Shown here: piece after piece, positions 15,126 through 62,170 of the stretch
Position numbering within the stretch: position 1 is the first letter of the stretch
How the letters are laid out: each line of letters begins with the position of its first letter
The notes under the pieces: model-generated
The model's database searches: none
Told to the model about the DNA's origin: nothing
Seen by the model: only the letters and a program-made list of their open reading frames with translations
NCBI GenBank assembly: GCA_903842795.1
Contig: CAIMNJ010000013.1
Span: 69,302 to 133,301, forward strand
DNA from: an uncultured bacterium
GTDB taxonomy: Bacteria > Patescibacteriota > Microgenomatia > UBA1400 > PJMF01
Direction of reading: 5' to 3'
DNA: 64,000 nt
Translations under genes and position numbers: made by a program

Positions 15126-15129
15126 GGTT

Positions 15130-16984: not shown

Positions 16985-16985
16985 T

Positions 16986-18317: not shown

Positions 18318-18484
18318 AAGCGTTCCTTTCTTTGCCAGTTTCTAATATTTTTTGGATCAAACTGTCATATACTTTAATTATATTGAAAACGAGTGATTCT
18401 TTTACTAATTTTAGGAAATTGCTTTTTTTGAAACAAAAAAAGCCCAGTTTAATAAATGAGGTTTTTGATCGGTAGAGTACAATA

Positions 18485-20824: not shown

Positions 20825-20837
20825 ATAATTCAAACCT

Positions 20838-23399: not shown

Positions 23400-23415
23400 T
23401 AAATGAAATGTTTGA

Positions 23416-23682
23416 ATGAAAATAATGAAATTAGATAAAGATCTGAGGGAACTGATTAAAGGAGTAACTAGTCCATATGTTTCTCAGAGAGATCCATCAT
23501 TTGGTTCTGCACAGATCACTAACATCCAGTCTATTAGAAATTTAGAAAAGACTATTAAAAAATTAGACAAACAAAATTCAGTTTTGAGTGTAAGAATGTA
23601 TTTCCTAGCAGTAATAAGTGGATTATTGGTATTTATTCAATTAGTTGAATATGCGATAAAGATATTCAACTTTTTTAAATAA
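23416..23682 (+). CDS. small hypothetical protein with C-terminal TM helix
   Basis: ORF only; hydrophobic C-terminus. Confidence 0.3.
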   Translation: MKIMKLDKDLRELIKGVTSPYVSQRDPSFGSAQITNIQSIRNLEKTIKKLDKQNSVLSVRMYFLAVISGLLVFIQLVEYAIKIFNFFK

Positions 23683-40615: not shown

Positions 40616-42834
40616 ATTTTCAATCCCATTATTTGTAGAGGTAACTTTTTTTATAATTGCGGTGATTATTTTTAATTATCAGGCATTTCAATGGATTAAA
40701 AATAGCGAAATTCAAAATTGGCAATTATTCGCACAGAATGTGGTGGCAGGTCTCAATCCTAAACATATTGAAGAAATGAGAGGTGAAGTGAGCGATAGAG
40801 ATCAACCTAATTTTATTTATGTTAAAGATCAGTTACATAGAGCAATGGAAGTTGGCAAAGTTAACAAGATTCAATGGCTTTATTTATTGCGTGTTGATGG
40901 TAAAAAAGTAACTTTTATCAATGATTCAATCCTTAAGGGTGAGCCAGATTATACTGATCCTGGTGAAAGGTATATTGATTATCCTTATGCTGTTTTGCTT
41001 GCTCAGGAAACCAAAAAAGTGCAAATTGTTAGTTCTTATACTGATGAGTGGGGAACTTACACTTCTGTTTTTGTACCAATTTTAGATTGGAATACTTCTA
41101 AAGTTGTGGGAATTCTTGGAGTTGATATAGACGTAAACATTTATCGTAAAACTATTGCTCAAAAAATGGTTTGGCCAATTACGATTACTATTGCTGCCAC
41201 TTGGCTATTGATAGTACTGATTAGGCAGTTTAACAATCAAAAGATTTTGAAGGAAAATGAATCTTTATTCCACGTTCTAACCGATGGTGTTTTGGATGCT
41301 ATGGTTATTGTTGATGGTTTTGGAAAAATTGTTTTATGGAATAAAGCAGCGGAAAGTCTATTTAAGTTTAATAAGAGCGAAGTGATAAATAAAGATTTTA
41401 TAGGAACCATTTTCCCTAAGAATGAAAAGATTGATGTGGATAATCAAAAAATAAAAGATTTGCTTGAAATTTTTAAAAATGAAAAAAATCTTACCAAAAA
41501 TGAAGTTATAGAATTAAAAGTTTATGATAAAAATATGACTGATTTTGAAGCAGAGATTTCAATTTCATCAGTAAGATTAAATTCCCAATTACATACAGTC
41601 AGTGTAATTCGCGATGTTAGTGAGAAAAAAAGAAGAAATGACGAAATTTTGCTTAAAAATCAAGAAATTAACGATCAAGCAAAAGCAATTCTCAATATTC
41701 TAGATGATGTTAATCAAGAGAAAGATAAAGTTAAAAAACAAGCTGAAGATTTAAAAAAATTTGAAGCAGCAGTTAATCAATCAAATGAAATGATGGTTTT
41801 TTCTGATGTAAATGGTACAGTTTTGTGGGGTAATCCAGCTATTGAGAAGGATGACAGGATTTTCTTTGAATGAGGTTTTACGAGTCAAGGCAGGCTCACT
41901 TTGGGGTGGTTTGATGGATAAGAAGTATTATGAAAAGCTTTGGCACACTATCAAAGATGAGAAAAAAGTTTTTACAGACGTAATTCAAAATCATCGTAAG
42001 AATGGTGAATTGTTTACTTCCACAATTAATATTTATCCATTGTTGGATGAAGATGGTAATTCTAACATTTTTGTAGCCACGCAAAGAGATATTACTAGAG
42101 AAATTGAAATTGATCGTATGAAAACTGACTTTATTTCTTTAGCCTCTCATCAATTGCGTACGCCACTTTCAGGGATGAAATGGTTTTTGGAAATGCTTCT
42201 TGGTGGCGATATGGGCAAGTTAAGTAAAGAACAGCACGATGCAATTGAAAACATTGATAAATCAAATGAGAGAATGATTGCTTTGGTAGCTTCTTTGCTT
42301 AATATTTCTCGCATTGAGTCTGGTCGTATCATAGTTGATCCTGAACCAACAGATTTGGTTGCCTTAGCTCAGGGCGTAATTGATGAATTGAAGATCAAAT
42401 ACGATGACAAAAAACAATCTTTAATTATTAGCGCTGATAAAAATTTGCCAAAAATCAACTTAGATCCAAAATTAGTTAGACAAGTTTTCTTAAACTTGCT
42501 TACCAATGCTAATAAATATACTCAAGAAAAAGGTGAGGTTATTATCTTTATTTCTCAAAAAGATCAAGATGTTTTGGTGCAGGTTTCTGATGATGGTTAT
42601 GGTATTCCAGAACAAGAACAGCGAAAAATTTTCGAAAGGTTTTATCGTGCCAGCAATGTGGTTAAAAAAGAAACTGATGGCACTGGACTTGGATTGTATT
42701 TGGTAAAAGCAATTGTTGAATCTTCTGGTGGAAAGATTTGGTTTAAGAGTCAAGTAGATAAAGGCACCAGCTTTTGGTTTACTTTTCCACTTAAAGGTGT
42801 CAAAGCCAAAAAAGGAGAGGTCTCTTTGAGTTAA
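40602..42834 (+). pseudogene. multi-domain sensor histidine kinase (Cache-like-TM-PAS-PAS-HisKA-HATPase) interrupted by a +1 frameshift near 41848-41853; ORFs 40602..41873 and 41812..42834
   Basis: PAS sequence reads continuously across frames (...NGTVLWGNPAIEK|MTGFSLNEVLRVKAGSLWGG...) if one G in aaggatg is removed; H-box SLASHQLRTPLSGM, G-boxes DDGYGI, GTGLGLYLV in the second ORF. Confidence 0.55.
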
Positions 42835-42847
42835 TTGAAGGAAAAAT

Positions 42848-43243
42848 ATGACAGAGAAAAAAAATTATAGAATTATGATTGTCGAAGATGAGCCAATGCT
42901 TTTACGAGCTATTGTAACTAAGTTTGAGAAAATTGACATTGAGGTTATTGCTTGTGCCACTGGTCAAGAAGGTTTGGATTATTTAATCAAAGGAAAAAAA
43001 TTACCTGATGCTATTTGGTTGGATTATTATCTGACAGATATGAACGGTCTAGATTTTATTCATCAACTTAAGACACACAAAAGCTCTTTAGATATTCCAG
43101 TAATTGTTGTTTCAAATTCGGCAAATGATGATAATAAGAAAAATATGCTTGCACTTGGTATAAAAAAGTATATTCTGAAAGCAGATTACCGATTAGAAGA
43201 AATTGTAGATATACTAAAGGCAGTGATAAAGGAAAATTTATGA
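42848..43243 (+). CDS. single-domain response regulator (CheY-like receiver)
   Basis: IMIVEDEP...WLDYYLTDMNG...KKYILKADY receiver signature. Confidence 0.75.
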   Translation: MTEKKNYRIMIVEDEPMLLRAIVTKFEKIDIEVIACATGQEGLDYLIKGKKLPDAIWLDYYLTDMNGLDFIHQLKTHKSSLDIPVIVVSNSANDDNKKNMLALGIKKYILKADYRLEEIVDILKAVIKENL

Positions 43244-43594: not shown

Positions 43595-45259
43595 ATGAAC
43601 AAAGATACTGCCCTGTACGACAACCTATTGGCAATGGGAGTGTTGGACAAAAAACTACTTGATGATTGTAAAGATGAGGCTATTTCTTCTAGTAAGAGTT
43701 TGGCAGAGATTTTGGAAAACAGAGACTTAGTTAGTGATGAAAATTTGGGCAAATTAGCAGCAGATTTTTATCAGCTACCATTTCTGAATTTGGCAGAAAT
43801 TAAGTTGGAAAGAGAATTAGTAAACAAAATCCCCAAGGCCTATGCTCAGGCTAGAAAATGCATGGTTATTGGCAGGCATGATGATGCTTTGTTGGTGGCT
43901 ATTTCCAAGCCAGAAGATAAAGATTTATTTGAAGAATTAAGTGTGGTTCTTGGCAAAGTTGAGTATGGTTACACTACAGAGAGAAATATAGTTAAATCAC
44001 TGCGTGTTTATGATGCCAATCCTCAAGCTATGTTTGAGGAAATGATGAAAACAACTTTAAGTGAAGCTAAAACCGGCCAAAATGATCCTCCAATTATTAA
44101 AATAGTTGAGAAAATTTTAGTTTATGGATATGAGCAAGGTGCTTCTGATATTCATATTGAGCCAACAGAAGAAGTGACTCATGTTCGCTATCGTGTTGAT
44201 GGCTTACTAAATGATGTTTTAACTATTCCCAAAGAATTGCATGAAAAGATTGTTACTAGAATCAAGGTGATGGCTCATATGCGCACTGATGAGCAGCATA
44301 GTGCTCAAGATGGTAAGTTAAATTTTGTGACTGAGGTGGAAAAAGTGGATGTTAGAGTTTCTATTGTGCCTATTATTGAGGGAGAAAATGTAGTTTTACG
44401 TTTACTTTCTGCCCAATCTAGACAATATTCTTTACTCGATCTTGGTCTTAATAAAGATGCAGCTAAAAAGATTGAAGAAGCAATTAAAAATCCTCACGGC
44501 ATGATTCTAACCACTGGTCCAACCGGTTCTGGTAAAACTACCACTCTTTACTCTTTGTTGAAGCGTTTAAATGTTCGTGGTGTGCACATTATGACCATTG
44601 AGGATCCAGTGGAATATGTGATTGCTGGAGTCAATCAGATTCAGGTGAGTGATGCCAATAATTTAACTTTTGCAGAGGGATTACGCACCATTGTTCGCCA
44701 AGATCCAAACATTATCCTTGTGGGTGAAATTCGTGATGATGAGGCAGCTGATATTGCTGTGAATGCAGCCATGACTGGACATTTGGTTTTATCCACTTTG
44801 CATACCAATGATGCTGCCACCGCTATACCAAGACTTTTGGATATGAAAGTTGAGCCATTTTTGATTGCTAGTACTGTCAATGTAATTGTTGCTCAGCGTT
44901 TGGTTCGCAAACTTTGTAATGTTTGCCGTGTTAGTGAAGAAGTAACAGTCGAAGAATTAAAAAAGAAGTGGGGTGAGAAACTAATTGAAAGGCATTTTGA
45001 TCAGGAAAAAGTTAGGCTTTATACAGCCAAAGGTTGTGAAATTTGTGGAGGTAGTGGCTACAAAGGTAGAGTAGGTATTTTTGAGGTGCTCAAAATGAAT
45101 GATGTTTTGCGTGCTGCCATAATTGATAAAAAAGACGCTAGTGAAATTAGCAAAATTGCCGTAGAAGCAGGCATGCAAAGTATGTTTGAAGACGGCATCG
45201 ATAAAGTTAAAACTGGCGTCACTTCTCTAGAAGAAGTCCTAAGAGTAACAATGGAATAA
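43595..45259 (+). CDS. pilB: type IV pilus assembly ATPase PilB (GspE family)
   Basis: N-terminal GSPII_E_N-like region, Walker A GPTGSGKTTTLYS, Asp box, His box LSTLHTND, C-terminal tetracysteine CNVC...CEICGGSG. Confidence 0.85.
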   Translation: MNKDTALYDNLLAMGVLDKKLLDDCKDEAISSSKSLAEILENRDLVSDENLGKLAADFYQLPFLNLAEIKLERELVNKIPKAYAQARKCMVIGRHDDALLVAISKPEDKDLFEELSVVLGKVEYGYTTERNIVKSLRVYDANPQAMFEEMMKTTLSEAKTGQNDPPIIKIVEKILVYGYEQGASDIHIEPTEEVTHVRYRVDGLLNDVLTIPKELHEKIVTRIKVMAHMRTDEQHSAQDGKLNFVTEVEKVDVRVSIVPIIEGENVVLRLLSAQSRQYSLLDLGLNKDAAKKIEEAIKNPHGMILTTGPTGSGKTTTLYSLLKRLNVRGVHIMTIEDPVEYVIAGVNQIQVSDANNLTFAEGLRTIVRQDPNIILVGEIRDDEAADIAVNAAMTGHLVLSTLHTNDAATAIPRLLDMKVEPFLIASTVNVIVAQRLVRKLCNVCRVSEEVTVEELKKKWGEKLIERHFDQEKVRLYTAKGCEICGGSGYKGRVGIFEVLKMNDVLRAAIIDKKDASEISKIAVEAGMQSMFEDGIDKVKTGVTSLEEVLRVTME

Positions 45260-45262
45260 AGA

Positions 45263-46318
45263 ATGAAAGTCAAAATTAAAATTAGTGAAGTTGAGATTTT
45301 GATGTTTACCAAGCATTTGGCTGTAATGGTCAAGGCTGGTATTCCAATTACGGAAGCCTTGTCCAATATAGGTACTTCGGCTTCAGGCAATTCAAAAAAA
45401 ATTATTAAATTGATTTTAGATAGGGTTGATCAGGGTGATACGTTAGCTGATGCTATCGGCAAAAGTTCTCCAAGTTTTGATAATATTTATATTTCTTTAA
45501 TTCGCATTGGTGAAGAGTCTGGTAAATTGGATGTAACTTTATCTTTCCTAGCTACACAATTAGCTAAAGTTTATAGCTTACGTCGTAAAATCAAAAGTGC
45601 AACCTTATATCCAACTTTGGTGATTGGACTCATGTTTACGGTTGGCATGAGTTTGGCCTTATTTGTTTTGCCAAAATTAACTGATTTTTTTGTAGCTTTT
45701 GGTGCTGATTTGCCAATGTCGACCAAGATTCTTTTGTGGGTGGCCAACTTAATGAAAAATTATGGAATTTTACTTGTTGGAGGCATGATTGGCTTAATTG
45801 TTTTACTTGGCCTAATCTTAAACACTAAATCAATTAAACCATGGTGGCACAAAGTTCTCTTTCATTTACCTTATTTAGGCAAACTTAATCAAGACAGCAA
45901 AATTACTGAGTCATTGCGTAATTTGAGTATTTTGCTTTCTTCAGGAGTGCCAATCGCTCAATCTTGGAGGATCATAAGTGATGCGACCAACAATGAGTTT
46001 TTGCGTTTAGATCTACTCAAGATTGGTGAAGAAATTCAAAAAGGTTCAATGATTAGTGAAGGCATACAAAAAAGAAAAATCACTTCAATCCCATCATTGG
46101 CTCAAAAAATGATTTCCATTGGTGAGCGCACTGGCAAGATTGATGAAATGTCGATGTATGTGGCTGATTATTATGAGGAAGAATTAGATAGTGCTAGTAA
46201 AAATTTGGCCACTGTACTTGAGCCAATTTTGTTAATCATTGTTGGCTTATTGGTAGCCTTTTTAGCCCTAGCGATTATTAGCCCAATTTATCAAATAACA
46301 GGGAGCATAGGAGGTTAA
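45263..46318 (+). CDS. pilC: type IV pilus inner-membrane platform protein PilC (GspF family)
   Basis: Two GspF repeats and three TM segments; directly downstream of pilB. Confidence 0.8.
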   Translation: MKVKIKISEVEILMFTKHLAVMVKAGIPITEALSNIGTSASGNSKKIIKLILDRVDQGDTLADAIGKSSPSFDNIYISLIRIGEESGKLDVTLSFLATQLAKVYSLRRKIKSATLYPTLVIGLMFTVGMSLALFVLPKLTDFFVAFGADLPMSTKILLWVANLMKNYGILLVGGMIGLIVLLGLILNTKSIKPWWHKVLFHLPYLGKLNQDSKITESLRNLSILLSSGVPIAQSWRIISDATNNEFLRLDLLKIGEEIQKGSMISEGIQKRKITSIPSLAQKMISIGERTGKIDEMSMYVADYYEEELDSASKNLATVLEPILLIIVGLLVAFLALAIISPIYQITGSIGG

Positions 46319-46321
46319 AAT

Positions 46322-46474
46322 ATGAAAAAAACAAAAACTCAAAGCAAGTCGAAGGCAAAAGCCCCAGCTTGCAATTGTTGGTGTTGTAGAGTGGTTCCAA
46401 AACCATTGGATATCTTTATTTTGCTTGGTGCATCTATTTTAATTGTTTATGTTTTTATCAAAATGGCAGTCTAG
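46322..46474 (+). CDS. small (50 aa) Cys-rich membrane protein, hypothetical
   Basis: Strong SD (ggaggttaaaat-ATG), CNCWCC cluster followed by one TM helix; too short for the ORF track. Confidence 0.3.
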   Translation: MKKTKTQSKSKAKAPACNCWCCRVVPKPLDIFILLGASILIVYVFIKMAV

Positions 46475-46886
46475 CAAAGGCTTGACGCTCATAGAATTAC
46501 TGCTGGTAGTGGCCCTTATTGCCACTATTGCAGTGATGGCAGCTCCCTTTGCTGGTCAACTTTATCAGCGTGTCAATCTCGCCACCACCAATAGTGTGGT
46601 GATTTCTGCCTTGCACAAAGCTCAAGCCAATTCAATGGAAGGTAAAGGAGATGCTGGTTGGGGGATTTGTTTGACTGGCGGCAAAGTGCGTGTTTATCTT
46701 GGAACTTGCGCTAGCCCCACACAAAAAGAAGATTGGAGTGTTGTTAGTACGGTGACGATTTCTGGTTTAAATGACACTACTTTTTCCAGATTGAGAGGCG
46801 AACCAAGTGCAGCGTTATCTGTAACAATTAGTAATTTAGCAGGAAATAAAACTGTTACAGTTAATCAGGCAGGAGGGATATGGTAA
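46443..46886 (+). CDS. prepilin-type N-terminal cleavage/methylation domain protein (pilin/pseudopilin)
   Basis: Class III signal ...SSKG|LTLIELLLVVALIA. Confidence 0.7.
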   Translation: MFMFLSKWQSSKGLTLIELLLVVALIATIAVMAAPFAGQLYQRVNLATTNSVVISALHKAQANSMEGKGDAGWGICLTGGKVRVYLGTCASPTQKEDWSVVSTVTISGLNDTTFSRLRGEPSAALSVTISNLAGNKTVTVNQAGGIW

Positions 46887-48667
46887 AAAAATCGCAAGGT
46901 GCCTTTGGTTTAATTGAAATCATCTTGGCGGTGGGGATTTTTGGTTTGGTGGCGGGTAGTGGAGTTTTGACTGTTTTACATAGCTTTAATCTCAATCGTC
47001 TTGGAGAGCAAGAAACTCAGGCAGCTAATTTTGCCAACCAAGGTTTAGAAGCAGTACGTTCTATTCGTAAAGTTGGCTGGAGCAATTTGGTTAATGGTAC
47101 TTACGGCTTGAGTTCTAGTGGCGGCTCATGGGCTTTTTCTGGCAGCAGCGATACTAATGGCAAAATGACTCGCACTGTAGTTATTGCAGATGGCAATCGT
47201 GATGGGAATGGCAATATTGTTGACGTAGGAACAGTTGATCCAGATTTAAAAAAGGTGACCAGCACAGTTACTTGGAGCTTTGGTCCAACTCGCAATGATA
47301 GTGTAGTAACAACTGAATATTTTACTAATTTTGCCAAAGCAATCGCCAATGCTGGAGATGGTTTATTGACTTATTCCAATGCTTCGCTTTTACCAAAGTG
47401 GAAGAGTTATGGGAATACAGTAAATACTTTTGGATCGGTGACGGATATGCCTAGTGGAGCGGTGGCACGCAATTGGGCGAGTGCTGTTTCACCCACCAAA
47501 AACGAGATGACCGCTGTTTATACTGATAACGCTGGCAATCTTAGAGTGATGTGTTTCAATGGTAGCACTTGGAGTCAGGATTTTAGCGTTACTGTGGGAG
47601 GTGCAGGGACGACGCGCCGTTTTGATGTAGCTTATGAAACTGGTAGTGGTGATGCGATGGTTGTTTATTCTACCAATGTGGGTACTACTAATGAGTTGGC
47701 TTATATTACCAAGGTAGGAGCGAATGACTGTGGCAGTGCAAATTGGAGTGCTGCTACCAATTTGGATCCGGTTCGTACAACAGGCATTGTTCATTGGGTT
47801 AAGATTGCTGAGGATGATCGTGTGGGATCAAATTTACTGGCAATGGTTTGGGCTGATGCTAATTCGGATTTGTCCGCAATGATTTGGTCTGGTAGTGCTT
47901 GGACCAACGAGCCAACCGCAGTGACAGAAGCTAGTTTGGAAGTGGTGACGATTGCGCAAGATGTAGAGGATTTTGACATAGAATATGAATCTTTATCTGG
48001 TGACATCATGCTTGTTTGGGCTAATTCTGCTGGAAGTAATGCAGTAAATGGCGTTCGTTATAGAGTTTGTACTGGTGGTACCAGTGCTTGTACTTGGGGA
48101 GCAGTGACCACCCCACCAACTTTTTTGGATGATGCAACTAATCTTGATTTGGCTGCAGATCCAAGTAGTGATGCAATGGTTTTTGCTTCGATTGGTAATG
48201 CTGGTTCTGATTTACAAAACGGTTATTGGAGTGGTTCGGCTTGGACCAATGTTGCTAATGCTGATACTAGTTGCGGTACTCCAACTGCTGGAAGTAAAAA
48301 AGTTGCGGTTGGTTGGTTGAATTCTGGAGCTACTAAGCGTAGTTTGGTGGTTTATAACGATAGTGCTGCCACAGGAATTGATTGGCGCACTGGCAGTGCT
48401 GGGACTTTTACCGCTCAGACTGATTGGGTTCCGACGCCAGTTATGAATGCAACCAAAGGTTATATTGAATTGATTGCTGATCCGAAAAATTTAGATAGAC
48501 TAAGTTTAGTGGTGGTTGATGGAGCTAGTGATTTATTTACCAAAAGAGTGGTAATGACTTCAGTTCCTGCTTTTACTTGGACAAATAGTGATGGTGGAGT
48601 GGCTCATGATGTGGCTTTACCATCTTTTGTAGCTAATCCATTTAGTTTTAATTATTGGAGAAATTAA
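46880..48667 (+). CDS. large (595 aa) prepilin-type minor pilin, candidate tip adhesin
   Basis: N-terminus KKSQGAFGLIEIILAVGIFGLVA prepilin motif, then a long Gly/Thr/Ser/Trp-rich beta-type region. Confidence 0.65.
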   Translation: MVKKSQGAFGLIEIILAVGIFGLVAGSGVLTVLHSFNLNRLGEQETQAANFANQGLEAVRSIRKVGWSNLVNGTYGLSSSGGSWAFSGSSDTNGKMTRTVVIADGNRDGNGNIVDVGTVDPDLKKVTSTVTWSFGPTRNDSVVTTEYFTNFAKAIANAGDGLLTYSNASLLPKWKSYGNTVNTFGSVTDMPSGAVARNWASAVSPTKNEMTAVYTDNAGNLRVMCFNGSTWSQDFSVTVGGAGTTRRFDVAYETGSGDAMVVYSTNVGTTNELAYITKVGANDCGSANWSAATNLDPVRTTGIVHWVKIAEDDRVGSNLLAMVWADANSDLSAMIWSGSAWTNEPTAVTEASLEVVTIAQDVEDFDIEYESLSGDIMLVWANSAGSNAVNGVRYRVCTGGTSACTWGAVTTPPTFLDDATNLDLAADPSSDAMVFASIGNAGSDLQNGYWSGSAWTNVANADTSCGTPTAGSKKVAVGWLNSGATKRSLVVYNDSAATGIDWRTGSAGTFTAQTDWVPTPVMNATKGYIELIADPKNLDRLSLVVVDGASDLFTKRVVMTSVPAFTWTNSDGGVAHDVALPSFVANPFSFNYWRN

Positions 48668-49176
48668 TGAAACAAAGAGGTTTTACATTCATTGAATTAT
48701 TGCTTTATATAGCTCTAATTTCTATTTTGGCTACTGTTTCTGTTTTTTTTATTACCAATGTTACATCAAGTAGAATCAAAGTCGAAGTTCAAGAAGAAGT
48801 GACCTATTCAGCAAGGTTTTTGAGTGAAAGGATTAGTAGAGAGATTCGTGGTGCAAGTGCTATTACTAGTTTAGCAGCTAATGATTTATGTTTGGCCATG
48901 GTTGATTCAGCTCGCAATCCAACCAGAATTTATATCAGTGCCGGACGTGCTCGTATTGGTTGGGGTGGCGGTGGTGCTTGTAGTGCTACTACCAGTAACT
49001 ATGACTTAACAAGTTCAGATATGGTGGTCAATTCGCTTAATTTTGTTAACTTGAGCACGGGAACTAGTAAAAATGTGGATTATACTGTTAATATATCTGG
49101 TAAGACTTTGACCAATAGACAAGAGTGGGTATTTAATACCAACGTGAAAGGATCTGGTGAAATCCGCACTAACTAA
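48655..49176 (+). CDS. prepilin-type minor pilin / pseudopilin
   Basis: KQRGFTFIELLLYIALISILA. Confidence 0.7.
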   Translation: MEKLMKQRGFTFIELLLYIALISILATVSVFFITNVTSSRIKVEVQEEVTYSARFLSERISREIRGASAITSLAANDLCLAMVDSARNPTRIYISAGRARIGWGGGGACSATTSNYDLTSSDMVVNSLNFVNLSTGTSKNVDYTVNISGKTLTNRQEWVFNTNVKGSGEIRTN

Positions 49177-49561
49177 ATCAGCTAAGGCCAAAGCCAATGG
49201 TTATATTGCAATTACCAGTATGCTAGTGGTTACAGCAGTGGTAATTTCTGTAGGTGTTTTGGCTACTTTTTCTTCCATTGGTAATGCTCAGATGGCTCTT
49301 GGTGGGGCGCAAGCCAACGGAGCGAGGTCTTTGGCAGAATCTTGCATGGAAGATGTTTTACTCAAAATTAATAAGACTTCCACAGTTCCATCAAGCGTTA
49401 GTACACCTCAAGGGATTTGCACTGTCACTACTGATGCTCAAGCAGGTAGTAACTATACGGTAAGTGTAACTGCTACCAAAGATGGTCGCACCAAAAAAAT
49501 TACCACTTCTGTTTCGAGGATAACAAATGTTTCAGTGACTTCGTGGCTCGAGCAGAATTAA
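49157..49561 (+). CDS. pilus-associated protein, PilX-like N-terminal hydrophobic segment (tentative)
   Basis: GYIAITSMLVVTAVVISVGVLA single TM then small globular domain; operon context. Confidence 0.4.
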   Translation: MKSALTKSAKAKANGYIAITSMLVVTAVVISVGVLATFSSIGNAQMALGGAQANGARSLAESCMEDVLLKINKTSTVPSSVSTPQGICTVTTDAQAGSNYTVSVTATKDGRTKKITTSVSRITNVSVTSWLEQN

Positions 49562-49605
49562 TAGACAAAGTTCTGTAAAAATGCCATACTAAAAAAAGCT
49601 TAAAT

Positions 49606-50592
49606 ATGAGTAAAACTGTCCTTTACATCTCTAAAGCTGATTTAGTGGTTGTTTATCCTGGTAAGGGTAAAAATTGGTCTACCAAAACTTGGACTTGGAA
49701 CGAAAAAAACATCAACAATATTCTCAAAGAACTTAAGGCAATAGATCATCACTTGATTATTTTATTGGCCCCAGATATCTCTTATTATAAAAAAATTGAA
49801 AGTGAGCAAGTGCTTAATAGAGCTTTGATTACTGAACAGTTGCCTAAATTTTTTCCTGAAACTTTGTCTCCAAGGCAATGGGACTGGAAAAAACTAGATG
49901 AAAAGACTTATTTATTAGAAGCAGTTACAACTAGAGTTTGGCAGTGGATTGAAGCAGCAGAAAAAATTGGTATCATCTTGGACAAAATTACTACTGCTAA
50001 ATATGTTGCAGAAAGAGATCAAGTTGATTTGGCCAATGCACATGAGTTATTTAAGGCAGTTTTAGCCGAAGCTAGGGATCGAGGGGCAGATGAGAATGTT
50101 TTAGACATCACTTTTAAGCAACCAAAAAAGAGTGCTAAACCAGCATTTATGCTGATTCTGTTTGTCATGATTATGTCTTTGTCTTTTTTCATTTTGTATT
50201 CTTATTTCAATAAACAAAAACTCAAAGAAGAAGAAAGATTGAAACAAGCAGCTTTGACTCTGATTACTCCTTCACCAACTCCAGAAATTACCGAAGCTCC
50301 AAAACCAGAAGATTTTAATTTAAGGTTAAGAGATAATAGCGGGATTGTAGGTTACGCTAGTAAATCAGCTTCTCTTTTTGATGGAGCAGGTTTTTCCAAT
50401 GTAGATATTATCGTTGCTACCAATGCTGCAGAAAAAAAAGTTAGCAAAGAAACTATTGTTCACGTTAAAACAGCATTGCCAGAAAATATCAAAAATATAA
50501 TCGACAAGCTTTTGCCAGAAAAGAAACCAGTTTACCAGATTGATCTGACTGATAATGATGTAGTTGATATATTAATTATTCTTGGTTCATAA
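49606..50592 (+). CDS. hypothetical pilus-assembly-associated bitopic protein (PilM/PilN-like?)
   Basis: Cytoplasmic N-domain, central TM (FMLILFVMIMSLSFFILY), Pro/Thr linker and extracytoplasmic C-domain; operon context only. Confidence 0.35.
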   Translation: MSKTVLYISKADLVVVYPGKGKNWSTKTWTWNEKNINNILKELKAIDHHLIILLAPDISYYKKIESEQVLNRALITEQLPKFFPETLSPRQWDWKKLDEKTYLLEAVTTRVWQWIEAAEKIGIILDKITTAKYVAERDQVDLANAHELFKAVLAEARDRGADENVLDITFKQPKKSAKPAFMLILFVMIMSLSFFILYSYFNKQKLKEEERLKQAALTLITPSPTPEITEAPKPEDFNLRLRDNSGIVGYASKSASLFDGAGFSNVDIIVATNAAEKKVSKETIVHVKTALPENIKNIIDKLLPEKKPVYQIDLTDNDVVDILIILGS

Positions 50593-50613
50593 TGGAATCG
50601 GAAAGGAGGCTTA

Positions 50614-51075
50614 ATGACTAAAAACCAAAAAGGATTTACTTTAATTGAGCTTTTGGTGGTTATCTCTATCGTTGCTCTGCTGTCAGTAACTGTCTTTGTT
50701 GCTCTAGATCCAGTTAAGAGATTTGCGGATGCCCGTAACTCTCGTCGCTGGTCAGATGTAAACAATATGATTACTGCTATTCATGAGTATATTGTAGACA
50801 ACAAAGGTGATTTACCGACTGGTTTGACTACTGGTATGAGTGCTACCCAACTTGGAACTTGTGTGTCAGGTGGTTCTACTCTTTGTTCTGGTGCAGCAGC
50901 AGCTTGTGTCAATATTGCTACACCACTCAATAAATACCTAAAGTCGTTGCCATTTGATGCTAAAACCGGCTCAGCGGCAACCACAGCTTACAAAGTTGAT
51001 GTCGATGCTAATAACATCGTTACTATCACTGCTTGTAGTGCTGAAAATGGCGAAACTATCTCAGTTTCTCGCTAA
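50614..51075 (+). CDS. type IV major pilin (prepilin)
   Basis: MTKNQKG|FTLIELLVVISIVALLS canonical class III signal with Glu5; Cys pair near the C-terminus. Confidence 0.85.
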   Translation: MTKNQKGFTLIELLVVISIVALLSVTVFVALDPVKRFADARNSRRWSDVNNMITAIHEYIVDNKGDLPTGLTTGMSATQLGTCVSGGSTLCSGAAAACVNIATPLNKYLKSLPFDAKTGSAATTAYKVDVDANNIVTITACSAENGETISVSR

Positions 51076-53335: not shown

Positions 53336-54229
53336 ATGCAAAAACTTAGCCTTAAAACCTTTCTGCGAAAATATCCTCATAATGAAGCCTGTTTGGAAGA
53401 GATAAAGCGTTTTGTTTTCCCTGATGGTATTCATTGCCCTAAATGTCAAAAAATCACCAATTTCTATAAACTCGACGGTCGCATGGCATATTCGTGTGGT
53501 GTTTGCCGTACGCAAGTATATCCTCTCAAAGGTACGATATTTGAAAAAAGCACGACCGATCTTCGTACCTGGTTTTACGTTATGTGGGTTATGAGTAAAA
53601 CAAGAAGTGGAATAAGTGCCAGACAAATACAACGAGAGGTTGGAGTCACGTATAAATGTGCCTTCCGCATGTGTCATCAGATTAGAAAACTCATGGCTGA
53701 TGACGGAGAACCAATGGACGGAATAAACGAGAGTGATGAAACTTATATTGGTGGAAAGGGAAAGAATAAACGCTATGTGCCAGACTATAACGAAAAACCA
53801 AAAGAAGTCGTCATGGGCATTCTCCAACGCGGTGGCAAAATTCACCTACGGCATATCCCCAATACTGGTAAGTGGACGATACTAAAGCAAATAAAAGAAA
53901 ACCTTTCAACAGATGCCTCAATCTATACTGATCAACTAGGAGCTTATCAACAACTTAACAGGTATGGTTATAATCACTCATTCGTGAACCACAAAGAAAC
54001 ATACGTCATTAAAGGAACTGATATTCACACCAATTCCATTGAAGGATTTTGGAGTATTTTCAAACGAGGAGTAACTGGCGTTTACACTCATATTTCTCCC
54101 AAATATCTCCAACACTATGCTGATGAATATGGGTTCCGGTATGGCAATAGAAAAGCTGATGATATGTTCACCGAAATGCTTAGGCAGATTGCTTTGAAGA
54201 AGGCTTTGCAGGTCTCACCGCTTTCTTGA
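53336..54229 (+). mobile_element. IS1595-family (ISXO2-like) transposase gene; IS boundaries not resolved
   Basis: N-terminal zinc ribbon CPKCQ...CGVC and HTH, DDE_Tnp_IS1595-like catalytic region (DETYIGG...). Confidence 0.8.
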
Positions 54230-54484
54230 GTAGCTTCACAAAATCTTTCTTATTTATTGTTTGATTTTCTTTCAAGCGTTTTTGTACTAGTGCGTTTTTC
54301 TCCAACTTCTTTTTACTCATATTCTGAGTATACCAGACTAAGAGTATTGGTAAATTTTGGCCAGAGTAAACAACCATGCTATACTCCAAAAATAGTGTAA
54401 GCGTGTTTACACTAAAAACGCCATATTTTAAGGCTAAATAACAAATATTCCTGTCCTTATTATTCTTTATAAATAAAGAGGTGT

Positions 54485-55264
54485 ATGAAACTAAAACCCC
54501 GACAGGAAGAAATACTTATCTATCTCTATCGCTTTCGTTTCCTTAATCGTACTCAAATTCAAAAACTCCTGTGTCACAAACACTTCAACCGCATTATTGT
54601 CTGGCTCAACCAATTAAACACTTATGGATATATTCGGAAATACTACAATCCCAAAACAGTGACTATTGCTGCAATATATTCCTTAGATTCAATGGGAAGA
54701 AAGTACTTGTTAGAGAAATCAAAGGAAGAAGGAAGTCGGATACAGCCAGAATTACTCAATCGTATTTGGAGAGAACATACCTTATCTGAGCAATTTCGTA
54801 TTCACTGTCTATTTCTTGCTGATATCTATCTATCGCTATCGGATTTGGTTACACAAAATAAAGCAGTTTTGTATTTTTTTACCAAAACAGACTTACATGG
54901 TCATGATTATTTACCCGATCCACGCCCAGATGCGTATTTTGCAATTAAGGAAGCGAAAAGGAAAACGAAACGTTATTTTCTAGATATCTTCGACCCGCTG
55001 CCACCTCGTATGATTCTACGGCGACGGGTTAAGCAGTACGTAGACTATTTTGACGAAAATGACTGGCAGGAAGCGACTAATCATCCATTTCCCCAAATTA
55101 TCCTAATTTCCCCAGATGAACGGACTAAGCGATATTTAAATAGATACATCAAGACTAAGATGGAATACACCTCAGACATTGAGTTTTATCTTTCGACTTG
55201 GGAACCAATACGGACAAAAGGAATGAAGAAAGAGGTGTTTGAGAAAGTTGAGGAATCTGAATGA
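54485..55264 (+). CDS. replication-relaxation (Replic_Relax) family protein
   Basis: N-terminal EEILIYLYRFRFLNRTQIQKLL signature of this plasmid/ICE-associated family. Confidence 0.6.
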   Translation: MKLKPRQEEILIYLYRFRFLNRTQIQKLLCHKHFNRIIVWLNQLNTYGYIRKYYNPKTVTIAAIYSLDSMGRKYLLEKSKEEGSRIQPELLNRIWREHTLSEQFRIHCLFLADIYLSLSDLVTQNKAVLYFFTKTDLHGHDYLPDPRPDAYFAIKEAKRKTKRYFLDIFDPLPPRMILRRRVKQYVDYFDENDWQEATNHPFPQIILISPDERTKRYLNRYIKTKMEYTSDIEFYLSTWEPIRTKGMKKEVFEKVEESE

Positions 55265-58170: not shown

Positions 58171-59121
58171 TTATTTTTTCTTTTTTTGGGCTATGTATAC
58201 ACCAATAACAACGATGATTAAGGAAATTACTTGTAGTGGAGTTACTAGTTCTTTGAGCAAGAAATAGCCAAGTGGCATGTAAATGACTGGCTGCAGGTAA
58301 TTGAATAAACTTGCTTCAGAAGCCTCAATTTCATTTTGACCCTTAATGTAAGCAGTTAAGCCAATAATTGAGCCAAAAATTGCTGCATAGAAGATTACTC
58401 CCCAAACTAGAATAGAGCTTAAATCAGTTTGTATACTCTGCGATAACTTGTCAAAGCTGAAATTTGCTTCGACTAGCGACAATAATCCAAAAGTAACCAA
58501 ACCAACAAAAAAACTTACGCTACTGACGAAAAGCTTTGGTAGTTTTCGGTAATGTTTCTTGGCTAGAATTAGATAGATGGCGGTTAGAATATTGTGGCCA
58601 ATGACGAGTAAATTGCCCACCATCGAACCAGAAAAATGATCACTCCCGACCAAGAGTGGTTCTAAGGCAATTAAACTGGTGCCGATCAAGGCAAGTAACA
58701 AACCAAGCCATTCGTTTTTTTCTTGCTTTTCTTTGAGAAAAATAATTCCACCGAAAATCACAAACAGCGGCAAACTAGTGGTAATAAGATTGGTTTCTAG
58801 AGCACTGGTTTGGTGCAGGCCAATGTATAAACAGGCTAAAGCCATGGAAGTCTCAATTAATTCCAAAAGAATAATAGCTTTGATGGCTTGCCATTTGTGT
58901 TTGATTCTTTTTAGATAATAGACAATGATGGGGATAGATAATAAGCCTGCCAAGGTAAAACGATAAAATAAATAACGAAAAGGAGTGATTTCTGAACCAT
59001 TGAAGCCAAATTTAACGATTGGTAAGAAAGCCCCCCAAGTAATGGTGGTTATGATCAAGAAAAAGTAAGCCTGAAAACGTTTGCGCATTAATTCCTTATA
59101 TATTAGAATAGCACGAATCAT
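58171..59121 (-). CDS. EamA/DMT-family transporter
   Basis: 10 TM helices in two repeats. Confidence 0.7.
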   Translation of the reverse strand: MIRAILIYKELMRKRFQAYFFLIITTITWGAFLPIVKFGFNGSEITPFRYLFYRFTLAGLLSIPIIVYYLKRIKHKWQAIKAIILLELIETSMALACLYIGLHQTSALETNLITTSLPLFVIFGGIIFLKEKQEKNEWLGLLLALIGTSLIALEPLLVGSDHFSGSMVGNLLVIGHNILTAIYLILAKKHYRKLPKLFVSSVSFFVGLVTFGLLSLVEANFSFDKLSQSIQTDLSSILVWGVIFYAAIFGSIIGLTAYIKGQNEIEASEASLFNYLQPVIYMPLGYFLLKELVTPLQVISLIIVVIGVYIAQKKKK

Positions 59122-59557
59122 GACAAAAAATCTAAATAAGCTTATTACTTTTATTCTTTTTATTATTGTCGTTGGCGCGCTTCTTTTCCGTCAAAAAAAT
59201 CTTCAAAATGAAGTTATTAATTCGGTTAATCAAAAGCAACTTAATGAGATTTCCATTTCCACTCCTTCTGCTCAATTAGAATTCAACGCAGGTGTAGGAG
59301 AGCAGAAGCAAGCTTATGAATTTGTGGCCACTATGTCTGGCCAGAATGCTTTGGAATTGGTGCAAAGTCAAGTGAAATTAGATCTTAAAAAGTATGATTT
59401 TGGCACAATGATTGAGGGAGTAAATGGCTTAAAAGCAGATAGTAAGCATTACTGGGCTTTGTATCAGGCTGGTGATTATGCTAAAACTGGTATTACTGAG
59501 CTTAAATTGACCAAAAATGAAAAGATTGAACTCAAGTATGAAGAAATTAAACTCTAA
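59081..59557 (+). CDS. DUF4430-like secreted/anchored protein (tentative)
   Basis: N-terminal TM, C-terminal VNGLKAD...YWALYQAGDYAKTG resembles the DUF4430 fold signature. Confidence 0.4.
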   Translation: MRINSLYIRIARIMTKNLNKLITFILFIIVVGALLFRQKNLQNEVINSVNQKQLNEISISTPSAQLEFNAGVGEQKQAYEFVATMSGQNALELVQSQVKLDLKKYDFGTMIEGVNGLKADSKHYWALYQAGDYAKTGITELKLTKNEKIELKYEEIKL

Positions 59558-60032
59558 ATATCGCAATTCAGCAGTTGGAGCTTTTTTGGCTTATGTTTCC
59601 CGCTTCAATCTTCTTCCAGCCAATATATCTCCACTTGGTGCTTATGGTTTTTTTGGTGGCAATGTTTTGTTTTATTTTTTATCAATCATCGCCTTTGATT
59701 GGCTTAAGGGTGGTTTCTATCAAGGTTTCATTTGGACTTATTTAGGTTTTGCTGCCTATCCACTTTTTGCTTTTTTATCTCGCAAATCCACTAAAAGGCA
59801 GGTTTTTTTCTTACCTTTAGCTTCCTTTACTTTTTTTATTTTGTCTAATTTTGGAGTTTTTTGGCCATGGTATGAACACACCTGGCAAGGTTTGTTGACT
59901 TGTTACGCTTTGGCTTTGCCTTTTTATACCCGTACTTTGCTAAGTGATCTTGGCTTTGGTTATGGTTTTCTCTTGCTAAAAAAACTCAAAAATCTTGCTT
60001 TTTCGCACTCTTCAAGATATAATGTCCTATAA
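59517..60032 (+). CDS. integral membrane protein, hypothetical
   Basis: Five hydrophobic helices. Confidence 0.4.
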   Translation: MKRLNSSMKKLNSKYRNSAVGAFLAYVSRFNLLPANISPLGAYGFFGGNVLFYFLSIIAFDWLKGGFYQGFIWTYLGFAAYPLFAFLSRKSTKRQVFFLPLASFTFFILSNFGVFWPWYEHTWQGLLTCYALALPFYTRTLLSDLGFGYGFLLLKKLKNLAFSHSSRYNVL

Positions 60033-60040: not shown

Positions 60041-60832
60041 ATGTTCAAGAAAAGAGTGGGACAAAAGCTTTATCAAAAAGCTCCCAACGAAGTTCTAGTT
60101 GCAGAAGCAAAACGCCTGAAAAGATTGGCTTTGCTTTCTTTTGCCTGTGCTATTCTTTTTTTAGTTGCTAGTAATCCATTTTTTGCGGTTGCTGGCTTAA
60201 AGAATGTTCTTTTAGCTATTCCAGAATTTATCAAAGTTCTTCCCGGTGAATCAGAAAAAACCACTTTTGCTTTTTTTGATTGGACAGAGGAACAGCTTAA
60301 TAATTCTTGGCCAATTTTTGCCAAAGAAAATACTTTAGCTGACAAAGAAGCGGGGCAGAGCGCTGTTGCTCCAACCAATTCTGATGTTGATTATGAAAAG
60401 ATACCTTTTTTTATTGAAATTCCTAGACTTAAGGTTTATGAAAAAGTGCATGCCAATGTCAATCCTAATGACGCCAAAGAATATAAAACAGCTTTAGAGG
60501 AAGGTGTGGCTCATGCTTTTGGTTCAGCTTTTCCTGGTCAAAACAAAATGATCTATATTTTTGGTCATTCGACTGATGGAGCTTGGAACGTGGAAGCTTT
60601 TAATGCTGTTTTCTATCAAATCAAAGAATTGCAAGTTGGTGATCAAATCATTTTGCATTTCGGCGAACAAAAATTCCTCTATGAAGTTCAAGCTCAGAAT
60701 ATTGTTTCTAGTGAAGAAGTAGACTTTGTAAATAATCTCAAAGACCAACCAATTTTGCTTTTGCAAACCTGTTGGCCTCCTGGCACTTCCTGGCAAAGAC
60801 TCTTTGTTACTGCCGTGCCAGTTACTCCCTAA
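60041..60832 (+). CDS. sortase-family transpeptidase
   Basis: N-terminal TM anchor; His motif IYIFGHSTDG, beta6/7 ILHFGEQKFLYEV, Cys motif LLLQTCWPPG (TLxTC-like), Arg QRLFVTAV. Confidence 0.65.
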   Translation: MFKKRVGQKLYQKAPNEVLVAEAKRLKRLALLSFACAILFLVASNPFFAVAGLKNVLLAIPEFIKVLPGESEKTTFAFFDWTEEQLNNSWPIFAKENTLADKEAGQSAVAPTNSDVDYEKIPFFIEIPRLKVYEKVHANVNPNDAKEYKTALEEGVAHAFGSAFPGQNKMIYIFGHSTDGAWNVEAFNAVFYQIKELQVGDQIILHFGEQKFLYEVQAQNIVSSEEVDFVNNLKDQPILLLQTCWPPGTSWQRLFVTAVPVTP

Positions 60833-60997
60833 AATAGTAGATACTATCCTATAGTATTGACAAATTGATATATTATGATACAATATGCTTCTTGTTTGAA
60901 ATATTTTGAGTGGTCAAAGCGACGACTCATATAAAATTTTTCAAACATTTTTAAACGCACGTTAACATGGGAAATATAGTCTAGCTAGTTCATTGAT

Positions 60998-61038
60998 AGC
61001 TCCGACTTGTGGTGGATCATCCACCCCAGATCGGAGCT
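60998..61038. promoter_or_regulatory. nested inverted repeats (outer agctccga/tcggagct; inner 15-bp palindrome ggtggatcatccacc) upstream of ORF 61063
   Basis: Seen directly; GGGGAG RBS and the ATG follow 20 nt downstream. Confidence 0.4.
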
Positions 61039-61062
61039 ATTGTTTCTCCTTTCGGGGAGTAA

Positions 61063-61374
61063 ATGAACATGCTTACACTAGTAATTAGGAGAAGTACGAT
61101 GAAAACTGCAGATTTGGAACTCTATCTTGATACCCTGTTGACCGGTGTCGAAACCGGCAATATGGAGGCGCTCCTGGAAAAAGTCCAGGCAGTCACCGCC
61201 AATGAGCACCCCAGTGATCATGAGTATGTTGAGAACCCCGACCTGCCGGGCACTTGCTTGCATTGCGGATGGATTGAGGCTGACACCCAATCCTCATGCG
61301 GATGCCCCAAGAACCTGCGCCAGCCCTCCGAAAGTCACTTTCCCATGTTAACGGCTTTCTTTAATTTATTATAA
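61063..61374 (+). CDS. hypothetical Cys/His-containing protein in a GC-rich patch
   Basis: ORF with GGGGAG RBS; CLHCGW...CGCP motif. Confidence 0.35.
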   Translation: MNMLTLVIRRSTMKTADLELYLDTLLTGVETGNMEALLEKVQAVTANEHPSDHEYVENPDLPGTCLHCGWIEADTQSSCGCPKNLRQPSESHFPMLTAFFNLL

Positions 61375-61426
61375 ATTTATCCTATAACATTGACATTTTC
61401 TAATTATAAATATATAATAAGCACTC

Positions 61427-62116
61427 ATGAAAACTAATATGAAAAAAATCGCTTCTTATTTTTTGATCATTACTGGTCTATTTTTGTTTTTTACCAATTT
61501 GGTTGATGCCAAAGAATGTACTACTGTTTACGGTGGTGGCGAAGTTTGCGAAACTGGCGAATTGAGTTTGGACAAAAAAGTTTTTAATCCTAAAGCCAAT
61601 GAATATTGGGATAATATTGATAGCAAAGACTATACTTTTGCTCCCAATGAGGAAGTAAAATTTAGCCTTCGTATCAAGAATATTTCTAATATTAAGGTCG
61701 ATAGTGCTCGCATTAATGATGATTTTGATCGTCTTGATGATTATATGGTTTTTGTCGGTAGTGACAAAGGTGACTATCGTGCTGAGGTAACTGACCACAA
61801 AGTCAAATTTGAATTTGGTGGTCTTGAACCTGGTGCCGAAGCTACTGTTTATTTTGTAGCTCGCTTCAAGCTTGAAAATCAATTGCCAGTTGGTACTACT
61901 TGTATTACCAATGCCGCTCACGCTTATTCTCATATTGATGCTGCCAGCGATAGTGATTTTGCTACCTTTTGTGTCAAAGCTAATAATGGCAAAATTGTTA
62001 CCACCAAAACTCCAGACACTGGTTTTGCTTTAAGTAACATTTTAGTGATTGAGGCTTTAGCTTTTGCTGGTCTCGGTTCTATTGCTTGGATCAAAGCTAA
62101 ATCTTTGACCAAATAA
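61427..62116 (+). CDS. cell-surface protein with DUF11-like domain and C-terminal sorting-signal-like tail (candidate sortase substrate)
   Basis: Sec signal, beta-rich domain, C-terminus KTPDTG-FALSNILVIEALAFAGLGSIAWI-KAKSLTK = motif + hydrophobic + basic tail. Confidence 0.55.
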   Translation: MKTNMKKIASYFLIITGLFLFFTNLVDAKECTTVYGGGEVCETGELSLDKKVFNPKANEYWDNIDSKDYTFAPNEEVKFSLRIKNISNIKVDSARINDDFDRLDDYMVFVGSDKGDYRAEVTDHKVKFEFGGLEPGAEATVYFVARFKLENQLPVGTTCITNAAHAYSHIDAASDSDFATFCVKANNGKIVTTKTPDTGFALSNILVIEALAFAGLGSIAWIKAKSLTK

Positions 62117-62138: not shown

Positions 62139-62170
62139 AACCCCGTCTCACAAGGACGGGGTTTTTGTTT
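62139..62170 (+). terminator. rho-independent terminator (aaccccgtc-tcacaag-gacggggtt + T tract)
   Basis: Perfect stem followed by tttttgtttgtttt. Confidence 0.75.

Follow-up and report, generated by a model that had tools for sequence, protein, structure and literature searches.

Does a sortase gene carried by an uncultured Patescibacteria genome act on a neighbouring protein whose sorting signal begins with threonine, where the LPxTG signal has leucine? The question is raised by a 64,000-nt stretch of contig CAIMNJ010000013.1 (assembly GCA_903842795.1, positions 69,302 to 133,301 of the forward strand), here called the window, in which a sortase gene at 60041–60832 is followed by a gene at 61427–62116 for a secreted protein ending in TPDTG, a hydrophobic segment and a basic tail. 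Patescibacteria, also known as the Candidate Phyla Radiation (CPR), are mostly uncultivated, tiny and host-dependent, and their way of life is thought to depend centrally on surface proteins. An earlier note on this DNA had taken the two genes as a sign of a distinct sortase specificity class. The analysis reported here suggests that they probably form a dedicated sortase–substrate pair of Microgenomates/'Pacebacteria'-like Patescibacteria, in which TPDTG would be cleaved, the secreted domain would be anchored to the cell wall, and the first position of the motif (P4) would have shifted throughout the lineage.

Identity and predicted structure of the sortase

The protein encoded at 60041–60832 scored 76.6 bits with the Pfam Sortase profile PF04203 (cut-off 26.6) and 48.9 bits with the NCBIfam profile TIGR01076 (cut-off 39.35). 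The His motif IFGHST, the Cys motif LLLQTCWP and the Arg motif that the earlier note had read in it are all present and correspond to His176, Cys244 and Arg253. Homologues of the window sortase numbered 109, and in alignments of 28 and 41 homologues these three residues were unchanged throughout. The AlphaFold2 (AF2) model, with a mean predicted local distance difference test (pLDDT) value of 74.7, is composed of a long N-terminal helix, two poorly defined helices, a disordered stretch (residues 89–114) and a barrel (123–260), and the pLDDT of the catalytic domain lies mostly at 80–97, a low-confidence loop at 182–188 excepted. When the barrel was compared with sortases of the PDB by Foldseek, matches were obtained at E values of about 4e-11 and root-mean-square deviations (rmsd) of 2.4–3.5 Å. 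Because the profile cut-offs are passed, the His–Cys–Arg triad is invariant and the model has a sortase fold, the product is classified by profile and model as a genuine member of the sortase superfamily (PF04203, TIGR01076, MEROPS C60); the model gives it the eight-stranded beta-barrel of sortases, together with a membrane anchor.

No C-terminal helix was seen in the sequence or in the AF2 model, as the protein stops three residues past the last strand. The conserved N-terminal linker of about 75 residues, which carries FDWT and EAGQSA, is specific to the clade of the window sortase and was modelled at low confidence (pLDDT 37–55). Among the open reading frames (ORFs) of the window no second sortase was found.

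Class assignment by hidden Markov models, which the earlier note had put forward as a check, was carried out with the NCBIfam models. All class scores stayed far below their cut-offs, namely class D (53.5 vs. 165 bits), SrtD (53.5 vs. 140), class C (50.2 vs. 160), class E (32.6 vs. 160), class GN (24.3 vs. 158) and class F (16.8 vs. 166), and the class A and class B models gave no match at E ≤ 0.1. Among solved structures, class C sortases and a class D enzyme come nearest in both sequence and fold, with class E close behind. The class C enzymes matched best were Actinomyces oris SrtC-1, Corynebacterium diphtheriae SrtA and Clostridium perfringens SrtC; of the class C and D structures, the top entries were 6ixz and 4d70 by sequence (about 61 bits) and 2xwg by fold (E 3.7e-11, 27% identity over 154 columns). 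By profile scores and by the modelled fold, the window sortase thus passes no class A–F model and has its nearest relatives in classes C and D. The window sortase lacks the lid motif of class C, DP[F/W/Y], and has only an NPF at residues 45–47, next to the N-terminal anchor. A non-canonical lid is possible in the stretch ahead of the catalytic domain, which was modelled at pLDDT 37–55.

The secreted neighbour and its Ig-like domain

The downstream gene begins 594 bp past the sortase stop codon, in keeping with the distance of about 600 bp given in the earlier note, and both ORFs lie exactly where that note had placed them. An alternative start for the 229-residue product is Met5 at 61439, and many homologues begin at the corresponding MKKI. 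In the AF2 model (pLDDT 80.6; above 83 over residues 41–110 and 121–190, and 72 over 111–120), a Cys31–Cys41 hairpin precedes a beta-sandwich with a CnaA-like immunoglobulin (Ig) fold. Foldseek matched the model to the CLIPPER crystal structure 9IFR with a template-modelling score of 0.76 (target-normalised) and an rmsd of 3.4 Å, and more loosely to pilin domains of Gram-positive bacteria (BcpA and PilA).

At the sequence level, the window protein scored 20.0 bits with PF01345 (cut-off 24.6) and 14.4 bits with TIGR01451 (cut-off 24). A precomputed PF01345 match is recorded for 30 of the 54 homologues, and distant relatives reach 27–36 bits with TIGR01451, above its cut-off, so that 'DUF11-like', as the protein had been called from its sequence, is a fair description of it. 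Relatives also match the RrgB isopeptide domain model weakly. A profile of the substrate family found nothing significant among PDB sequences, the best match being the CfaE fimbrial subunit (E 0.07 over 36 residues).

The former DUF11 family (PF01345) now bears the name CLIPPER and is described as a CnaA-like Ig domain that often contains an Asp-catalysed Lys–Asn isopeptide bond and frequently disulfides, the isopeptide bond being missing from some of these domains (PMC12617251). In a 29-sequence alignment of the substrate, K50/K51, D98, K148, C159, N162 and C182 are unchanged, as are the four cysteines in all, and the isopeptide candidates K50/K51, D98 and N162 sit on the expected strands of the AF2 model. 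Because K50/K51, D98, N162 and the four cysteines are invariant, a Lys–Asn isopeptide bond (candidates K50/K51 and N162, with D98 as the catalytic residue) and two disulfides are plausible by analogy with CLIPPER domains.

Conservation of the TPDTG sorting signal

The tripartite C-terminus described in the earlier note was recovered, with TPDTG in the place of the pentapeptide (residues 195–199), a helix at 202–222 and the tail KAKSLTK. LPxTG itself is not found in the window substrate, as the Leu is replaced by Thr (by Ser or Ala in few homologues) and the Pro, Thr and Gly are kept. A search of 5.8 billion proteins yielded 54 homologues at 51–100% identity, and the 53 full-length sequences among them all have a C-terminus with [T/S/A]P[D/A/S/E]TG, followed by F, L, V or I, a hydrophobic segment and a basic tail. 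The earlier note had made its case depend on other proteins with such a tail and on the sortase profiles; many proteins with TPxTG, a helix and a basic tail were found, and the sortase ORF passes the profiles. P196, T198 and G199 do not change in the 29-sequence alignment, and the two codons preceding the motif vary freely at the DNA level, the motif itself being fixed. P4 is only T, S or A in the 53 homologues; Ile and Met, each one mutation off Thr, were never seen. Judged from these comparisons of sequence, the TPDTG of the window protein is more than a chance occurrence.

Within the window, 61427–62116 is the sole ORF that combines xPxTG with a C-terminal helix and a basic tail. The same motif had been expected to be worth looking for in the pilins of the window; these are type IV pilins with an N-terminal methylation motif and no C-terminal sorting signal, which makes that point moot.

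Curated models of the sorting signal largely fail to detect this family. The LPXTG-anchor model TIGR01167 gave no match to the window substrate at E ≤ 10, and PF00746 gave none at E ≤ 0.1. When 19 relatives were scanned with NCBIfam, the TIGR01167 cut-off of 15.9 bits was passed by only two, the LPKTG protein of locus L052 (17.2) and the SPETG protein P0170 (16.4), and every TPxTG relative in that scan was missed; no NCBIfam model for C-terminal signals recognised the TPxTG tails. A profile of the 44-residue C-terminal tails, searched against the 5.8 billion proteins for unrelated TPxTG proteins, returned only three short fragments, a profile so short carrying too little information at that database size.

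The helix of the sorting signal has a conserved Glu near its middle (Gln in some homologues; L-[E/Q]-A) as well as a conserved GLG. A charge in the middle of the helix is unusual for a sorting signal and might contact the anchor of the sortase.

Organization of the locus and linkage of the two genes

The linkage of the two genes was evaluated in an orthologous set of 21 loci with full-length sortase orthologues (50–70% identity), one genome being taken per GTDB species. The substrate gene directly follows the sortase gene in 20 of the 21; in the remaining one, L016, the contig ends inside the downstream gene. The substrates of the 20 complete loci all carry [T/A]PxTG. The sequence of the substrate promoter is similarly kept in 20 of the 21 loci, with the same 8-nt spacing to an ATG in 13. 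Because the −10 hexamer ends exactly 8 nt before the ATG in these 13 loci, the window among them, the substrate mRNA is probably leaderless or nearly so. In the loci that have lost the promoter-proximal ATG, translation must begin some 40 nt further downstream, at MKKI, which is conserved throughout.

Upstream of the sortase gene, the DUF4430 and DUF6580 genes end 9 nt ahead of its ATG; because the two genes overlap and this gap is only 9 nt, they are probably co-transcribed with the sortase gene. The order DUF4430–DUF6580–sortase–substrate is retained in 12 of the 21 loci. DUF4430 is presumably a transcobalamin-like C-terminal domain and the DUF6580 product is a membrane protein; a functional tie of either to the sortase is not evident.

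Most orthologous loci have 40–100 bp between the sortase and substrate genes, compared with a 594-bp insert in the window (60833–61426). The insert contains an ORF of 91 codons (61099–61374) with a good AGGAG ribosome-binding site, a GC content of 51% (window average about 37%) and several Cys codons (CLHC, CGC); it has no Pfam match, and a 45-nt inverted repeat (hairpin at 60996–61040) lies immediately upstream of it. At this point of the locus, L005, L006 and L008 also carry inserted DNA, of about 500 bp; its small ORF contains Cys and differs from locus to locus, and homology of these ORFs to that of the window was not significant (blastp E 0.36). Rfam gave no match in or near the sortase–substrate locus.

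Another protein, of about 1000–1100 residues, is encoded 3–7 kb downstream of the sortase in L003–L007, L010, L011, L014, L018, L024, L035, L052 and L075; in the window, the position of its gene would fall past 64000. Its C-terminus is strongly conserved, with IYIFF[W/Y]PQLLEYLGF, a hydrophobic segment and KK or RK, and contains no xPxTG. It looks like another membrane or sorting-type signal.

A large sortase family with variation at P4

The signature LQTC[W/Y]PPGT was confirmed at no fewer than 591 loci (at least that number) among GTDB species genomes, sampled at one genome per species, and nearly all of these carry Patescibacteria, Microgenomates or Pacebacteria in their titles. By this signature, the window sortase is a member of one very large Patescibacteria family. 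A few loci with the signature are labelled 'Pseudomonadales', 'Gammaproteobacteria', 'Clostridia' (L024) or 'TM6' (CP011212.1, L006), such titles occurring across L005–L010, L012–L014 and L023–L078; they look like mislabels by submitters and not real occurrences.

Distant sortases of the family share about 45% identity with the window enzyme over the catalytic domain only, and a small secreted protein adjoins these too. The substrate-family profile matches these neighbours of 200–250 residues at E values from 1e-50 to 4e-9, and their motifs are LPPTG, LPKTG, LPITG, LPATG, MPETG, YPETG, IPEAG and, once, TPATG. Because the substrate profile matches neighbours of distant sortases that have other residues at P4, the sortase–substrate pair is, on this comparison, ancient, and only P4 differs between lineages. 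For two intermediate sortases, P0130 and P0128, the contig stops short of the downstream gene or within it.

In a neighbour-joining tree of 31 sortase catalytic domains, the T-type clade of the window sortase is monophyletic and has an MPETG pair as its sister. T-type pairs have at least three separate origins in the tree. In detail, L065 (TPKTG) lies inside an L-type group among relatives with LPKTG and LPATG, and the TPATG pair of L052 is another T-type origin inside an L-type group, beside an LPKTG pair.

At L052 (8949–12052, Shapirobacteria), two divergently arranged sortase–substrate pairs, TPATG and LPKTG, are adjacent to each other. Over the first half of their catalytic domains the two sortases are near-identical, and they differ in the region of the beta6/beta7 loop; the residue seven past the catalytic Cys is Leu in one and Phe in the other. 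The locus is a natural experiment on P4 specificity. A residue that tracks the switch from L to T was also sought in the wider family. The beta6/beta7-loop region varies between clades, but not consistently. A change from an aromatic residue to Leu seven residues past the Cys is seen in L065 vs. L026 and in L052a vs. L052b, and the clade of the window sortase keeps Trp there, so no general rule was obtained.

When 1.84 billion cluster representatives were searched exhaustively with a profile, 1372 relatives of the substrate were recovered. For a census of P4 the best 150 of the 1372 were taken, of which 110 were small (150–320 residues) and 103 of these had a recognisable tripartite signal. 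Among these 103 distant representatives, P4 was Leu in 39, Thr in 37, Met in 6, Ile in 5, Ser in 4, Val in 4, Ala in 2, Phe in 2 and Asn in 2; the T-type tail in the query profile slightly favours T-type proteins in the ranking, although many alignments end short of the tail. A large subgroup of distant relatives ends in TTPPTGPEALxLLALIPxG..G..LRKK.

These comparisons bear directly on the specificity class that had been proposed for the window enzyme. What stands of the proposal is a real sortase with a credible substrate, T, S or A in the place of Leu at P4 throughout the clade, and no score near the cut-off of any class A–F model. What does not stand is the separate class, as the same family pairs with LPxTG, MPETG, YPETG and IPEAG, and T arose repeatedly. 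The system is best described, from the alignments and the tree, as a change of a single sorting-motif position that is specific to a lineage and lies inside one sortase family, not as a new class, the P4 preference having apparently shifted or relaxed inside that family.

Proposed mechanism and alternatives

In the mechanism proposed for the dedicated pair, the substrate would be strongly transcribed from its own promoter, exported by Sec and folded into a single disulfide-braced CLIPPER/DUF11 Ig-like domain, and its C-terminal helix and basic tail would hold it in the membrane. The membrane-anchored sortase would cleave TPDTG between Thr198 and Gly199 via Cys244, with His176 and Arg253, and pass the protein to an amine of a cell-wall precursor, by which the domain would come to be covalently displayed on peptidoglycan. 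Ancestrally Leu, P4 would have become a small residue, usually Thr and in rare cases Ser or Ala, with the pairing kept across the clade. The comparisons show the identity and triad of the enzyme, the tripartite signal and its conservation, the conserved adjacency of the genes and the homology to LPxTG-bearing neighbours of related sortases. The steps of transcription, export and membrane retention are based on features of the sequence and on what is established about Sec and sortases; we infer the cleavage site and the acceptor molecule, and the window sortase may prefer Thr over Leu. A LytR-CpsA-Psr (LCP) gene (LytR_cpsA_psr, 1616–2734, minus strand) is also present in the window and fits, as circumstantial evidence, a wall chemistry of the Gram-positive type; in Gram-positive bacteria, LCP enzymes attach glycopolymers to peptidoglycan.

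Several observations weigh against this mechanism. No genes for peptidoglycan synthesis were recognised in the window. Two distant contigs encoding TPPTG proteins had no sortase in the flanks examined (L082, 3.6 kb upstream and 10 kb downstream; L083, 10 kb upstream and 2 kb downstream), so adjacency of the two genes is not universal. Further, no consistent sortase substitution follows the change from L to T over its three origins, so that the change may be one of tolerance at P4 and not of specificity, and the nearest solved relatives of the enzyme are pilin-polymerising class C sortases, which makes polymerisation possible.

The alternative that survives best is a relaxed tolerance at P4, in which the sortase would take almost any residue there, Leu included, and Thr would be neutral and fixed by drift. 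It accounts for the pairing of one sortase family with L, M, Y, I and T at P4, for the repeated origin of T inside L-type clades, for the many P4 states among the 103 representatives (L and T foremost, with others fewer) and for a switch that came with no consistent change in the sortase. However, the restriction of P4 to T, S and A in 53 homologues down to 51% identity, next to preceding residues that are free to vary, suggests selection for a small residue, and the adjacent TPATG and LPKTG pairs of L052 are easier to explain with enzymes that discriminate between them. We therefore consider such tolerance rather unlikely, if still worth weighing. Its counterpart, that the sortases of the clade evolved a genuine preference for Thr, Ser or Ala and that TPxTG is a second major sorting code of the CPR, is put forward from the sequence comparisons as a tentative proposal, somewhat short of probable.

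It is also unlikely, and more so than tolerance, that the sortase polymerises its substrate as a pilus, joining Thr198 to a lysine of the next subunit and building a covalent CLIPPER fibre instead of, or before, anchoring. The best matches of the sortase by sequence and by fold are class C enzymes, although class D and E structures score nearly as high, the class C model reaches less than its cut-off by a wide gap (50.2 bits vs. 160), and the C-terminal helix typical of class C and the DP[F/W/Y] lid are both missing. The substrate fold resembles the BcpA and PilA pilin domains, its relatives weakly match the RrgB isopeptide model, and a consensus promoter would suit an abundant structural subunit; yet the locus holds one substrate gene and one sortase gene, with no tip or base pilins and no pilin motif of the YPKN type. 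As for acceptor lysines, K50, K51 and K148 are invariant, but K50/K51 are better read as the intramolecular isopeptide lysine of a CLIPPER domain (PMC12617251).

Finally, it is very improbable that the protein is no sortase substrate, its C-terminal helix being a permanent anchor, TPxTG a structural or linker feature and the sortase serving other proteins: the missing TIGR01167 match (E ≤ 10) and the distant TPPTG members with no sortase in the examined flanks would fit this, but P, T and G are invariant exactly at the positions of a sortase motif and are followed by a helix and a basic tail, homologues in sister lineages bear LPxTG at the same position beside homologous sortases, and adjacency is kept in 20 of 20 complete orthologous loci.

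Implications

The finding leaves known sortase chemistry unaltered, and its consequences concern the prediction, specificity and use of these enzymes. If a large share of CPR substrates use TPxTG, MPxTG or IPxTG, predictions of wall anchoring that rely on the current models are incomplete. The conserved gene pair is also a simple, testable enzyme–substrate system in a lineage without biochemistry. The T-, L-, M-, Y- and I-type pairs, together with the L052 paralogues, form a natural series on how sortases read P4, and this reading bears on the engineering of orthogonal sortases for protein ligation. If the preference for Thr, Ser or Ala is true, TPxTG would be about as common as LPxTG in the substrate family, genomes like that of L052 would have paralogous sortases, one T-specific and one L-specific, each sorting its own proteins alongside the other, and T-type enzymes would be natural orthogonal tools for sortase-mediated ligation.

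Other features of the window

The features located in the window are collected in Table 1. A type IV pilus cluster occupies 43595–51075 and is preceded by genes for a sensor kinase and a response regulator (39314–43243). The regions 12295–25099 and 53336–55264 are probably mobile or defence elements.

Table 1. Positions of the features of the sortase–substrate locus and of other genes in the 64,000-nt window.
Feature	Position	Strand	Remarks
DUF4430 gene and DUF6580 gene	59081–60032 (59081–59557 and 59517–60032)	+	Pfam matches; the two genes overlap each other
Sortase gene	60041–60832	+	263 aa; predicted N-terminal membrane anchor, clade-specific linker of ~75 aa, catalytic domain ~120–263
Sortase N-terminal transmembrane anchor	60122–60190	+	Residues ~28–50, LALLSFACAILFLVASNPFF...; hydrophobic; long AF2 helix 16–44
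Catalytic His176 codon	60566–60568	+	In IFGHST; invariant in both sortase alignments
Catalytic Cys244 codon	60770–60772	+	In LQTCWPPGT (family signature); invariant in both sortase alignments
Catalytic Arg253 codon	60797–60799	+	In WQRLF; invariant in both sortase alignments
Substrate promoter TTGACA-17-TATAAT	61390–61418	+	12/12 match to consensus; 8 nt between the end of the −10 hexamer and the ATG
Substrate gene	61427–62116	+	229 aa; predicted secreted single-domain CLIPPER/DUF11-like protein with C-terminal sorting signal; 54 homologues
Sec signal peptide	61427–61510	+	Residues 1–28; predicted cleavage VDA/KE; basic N-terminus, hydrophobic core, AXA; AF2 helix 5–23
Ig-like CLIPPER/DUF11 beta-sandwich	61562–61981	+	Residues ~46–185; from AF2, Foldseek and alignment
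Sorting pentapeptide T195-P-D-T-G199	62009–62023	+	Predicted cleavage T198/G199; P196, T198 and G199 invariant
Hydrophobic transmembrane segment of sorting signal	62030–62092	+	Residues 202–222; AF2 helix 202–228; conserved mid-helix Glu/Gln
Basic cytoplasmic tail KAKSLTK	62093–62113	+	Direct reading; basic tail in all full-length homologues
Intrinsic-terminator-like hairpin	62139–62163	+	10-bp stem with 6 GC pairs, then a T-run; just 3′ of the substrate stop
Two tRNA genes	12295–12369, 12455–12536		
Serine recombinase	12776–14071	−	
ParB-like/DNA methylase fusion	16986–18317		
Type I/III restriction-modification genes	18485–23399		
PilB-like ATPase	43595–45259		Type IV pilus cluster
PilC-like platform protein	45263–46318		Type IV pilus cluster
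Three pilins with N-methylation motif	46443–46886, 48655–49176, 50614–51075		Type IV pilus cluster
IS1595-family transposase	53336–54229		
Replic_Relax protein	54485–55264		

Relation to known sortase systems

Over half of the CPR genomes have been reported to encode sortases (family fam000526), which were described as near-ubiquitous in Microgenomates (Meheust et al., 2019; PMC6744442), and the window enzyme is very probably a member of that family. The passages of that paper that deal with CPR sortases do not describe a sorting motif or a paired substrate. Full-text searches found no paper on TPxTG, TPDTG, TPATG or TPETG as a sorting motif, and none describing the sorting motif of CPR sortases. 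The TPxTG variant, and the fact that Patescibacteria conserve it and use it widely, thus appear to be undescribed, the chemistry itself being ordinary.

With the class C and D sortases of Gram-positive bacteria, the window enzyme has in common the His–Cys–Arg triad, the beta-barrel and a gene adjacent to that of the substrate. It differs from class C in that it has no DP[F/W/Y] lid and no C-terminal anchor, and in having LQTCWPPGT and the linker of about 75 residues. The substrate, for its part, resembles the CLIPPER domains of fibrillar adhesins in its predicted Ig-like sandwich of the CnaA type, its candidate Lys/Asp/Asn triad and its putative disulfides (PMC12617251). CLIPPER adhesins are very long, with stalks of tandem repeats, whereas the mature window substrate, of about 165 residues, consists of one domain only.

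For the motif, the comparison that comes nearest is SrtB of Clostridioides difficile, a class B sortase shown experimentally to cleave (S/P)PxTG between T and G (PMC4155245), to whose specificity P4 contributes (PMC5118464). Similar to the window protein, the substrates of this enzyme have a small or polar residue in the place of Leu at P4 and keep the P, T and G, the helix and the basic tail. In contrast, C. difficile SrtB is a class B enzyme of a Firmicute with about seven diverse substrates, and the window sortase belongs to Patescibacteria and is paired with one small substrate, in a family branch where Thr is usual at P4. C. difficile SrtB is the closest tested precedent for the TPDTG pair, and the resemblance between the two is one of function, not of descent.

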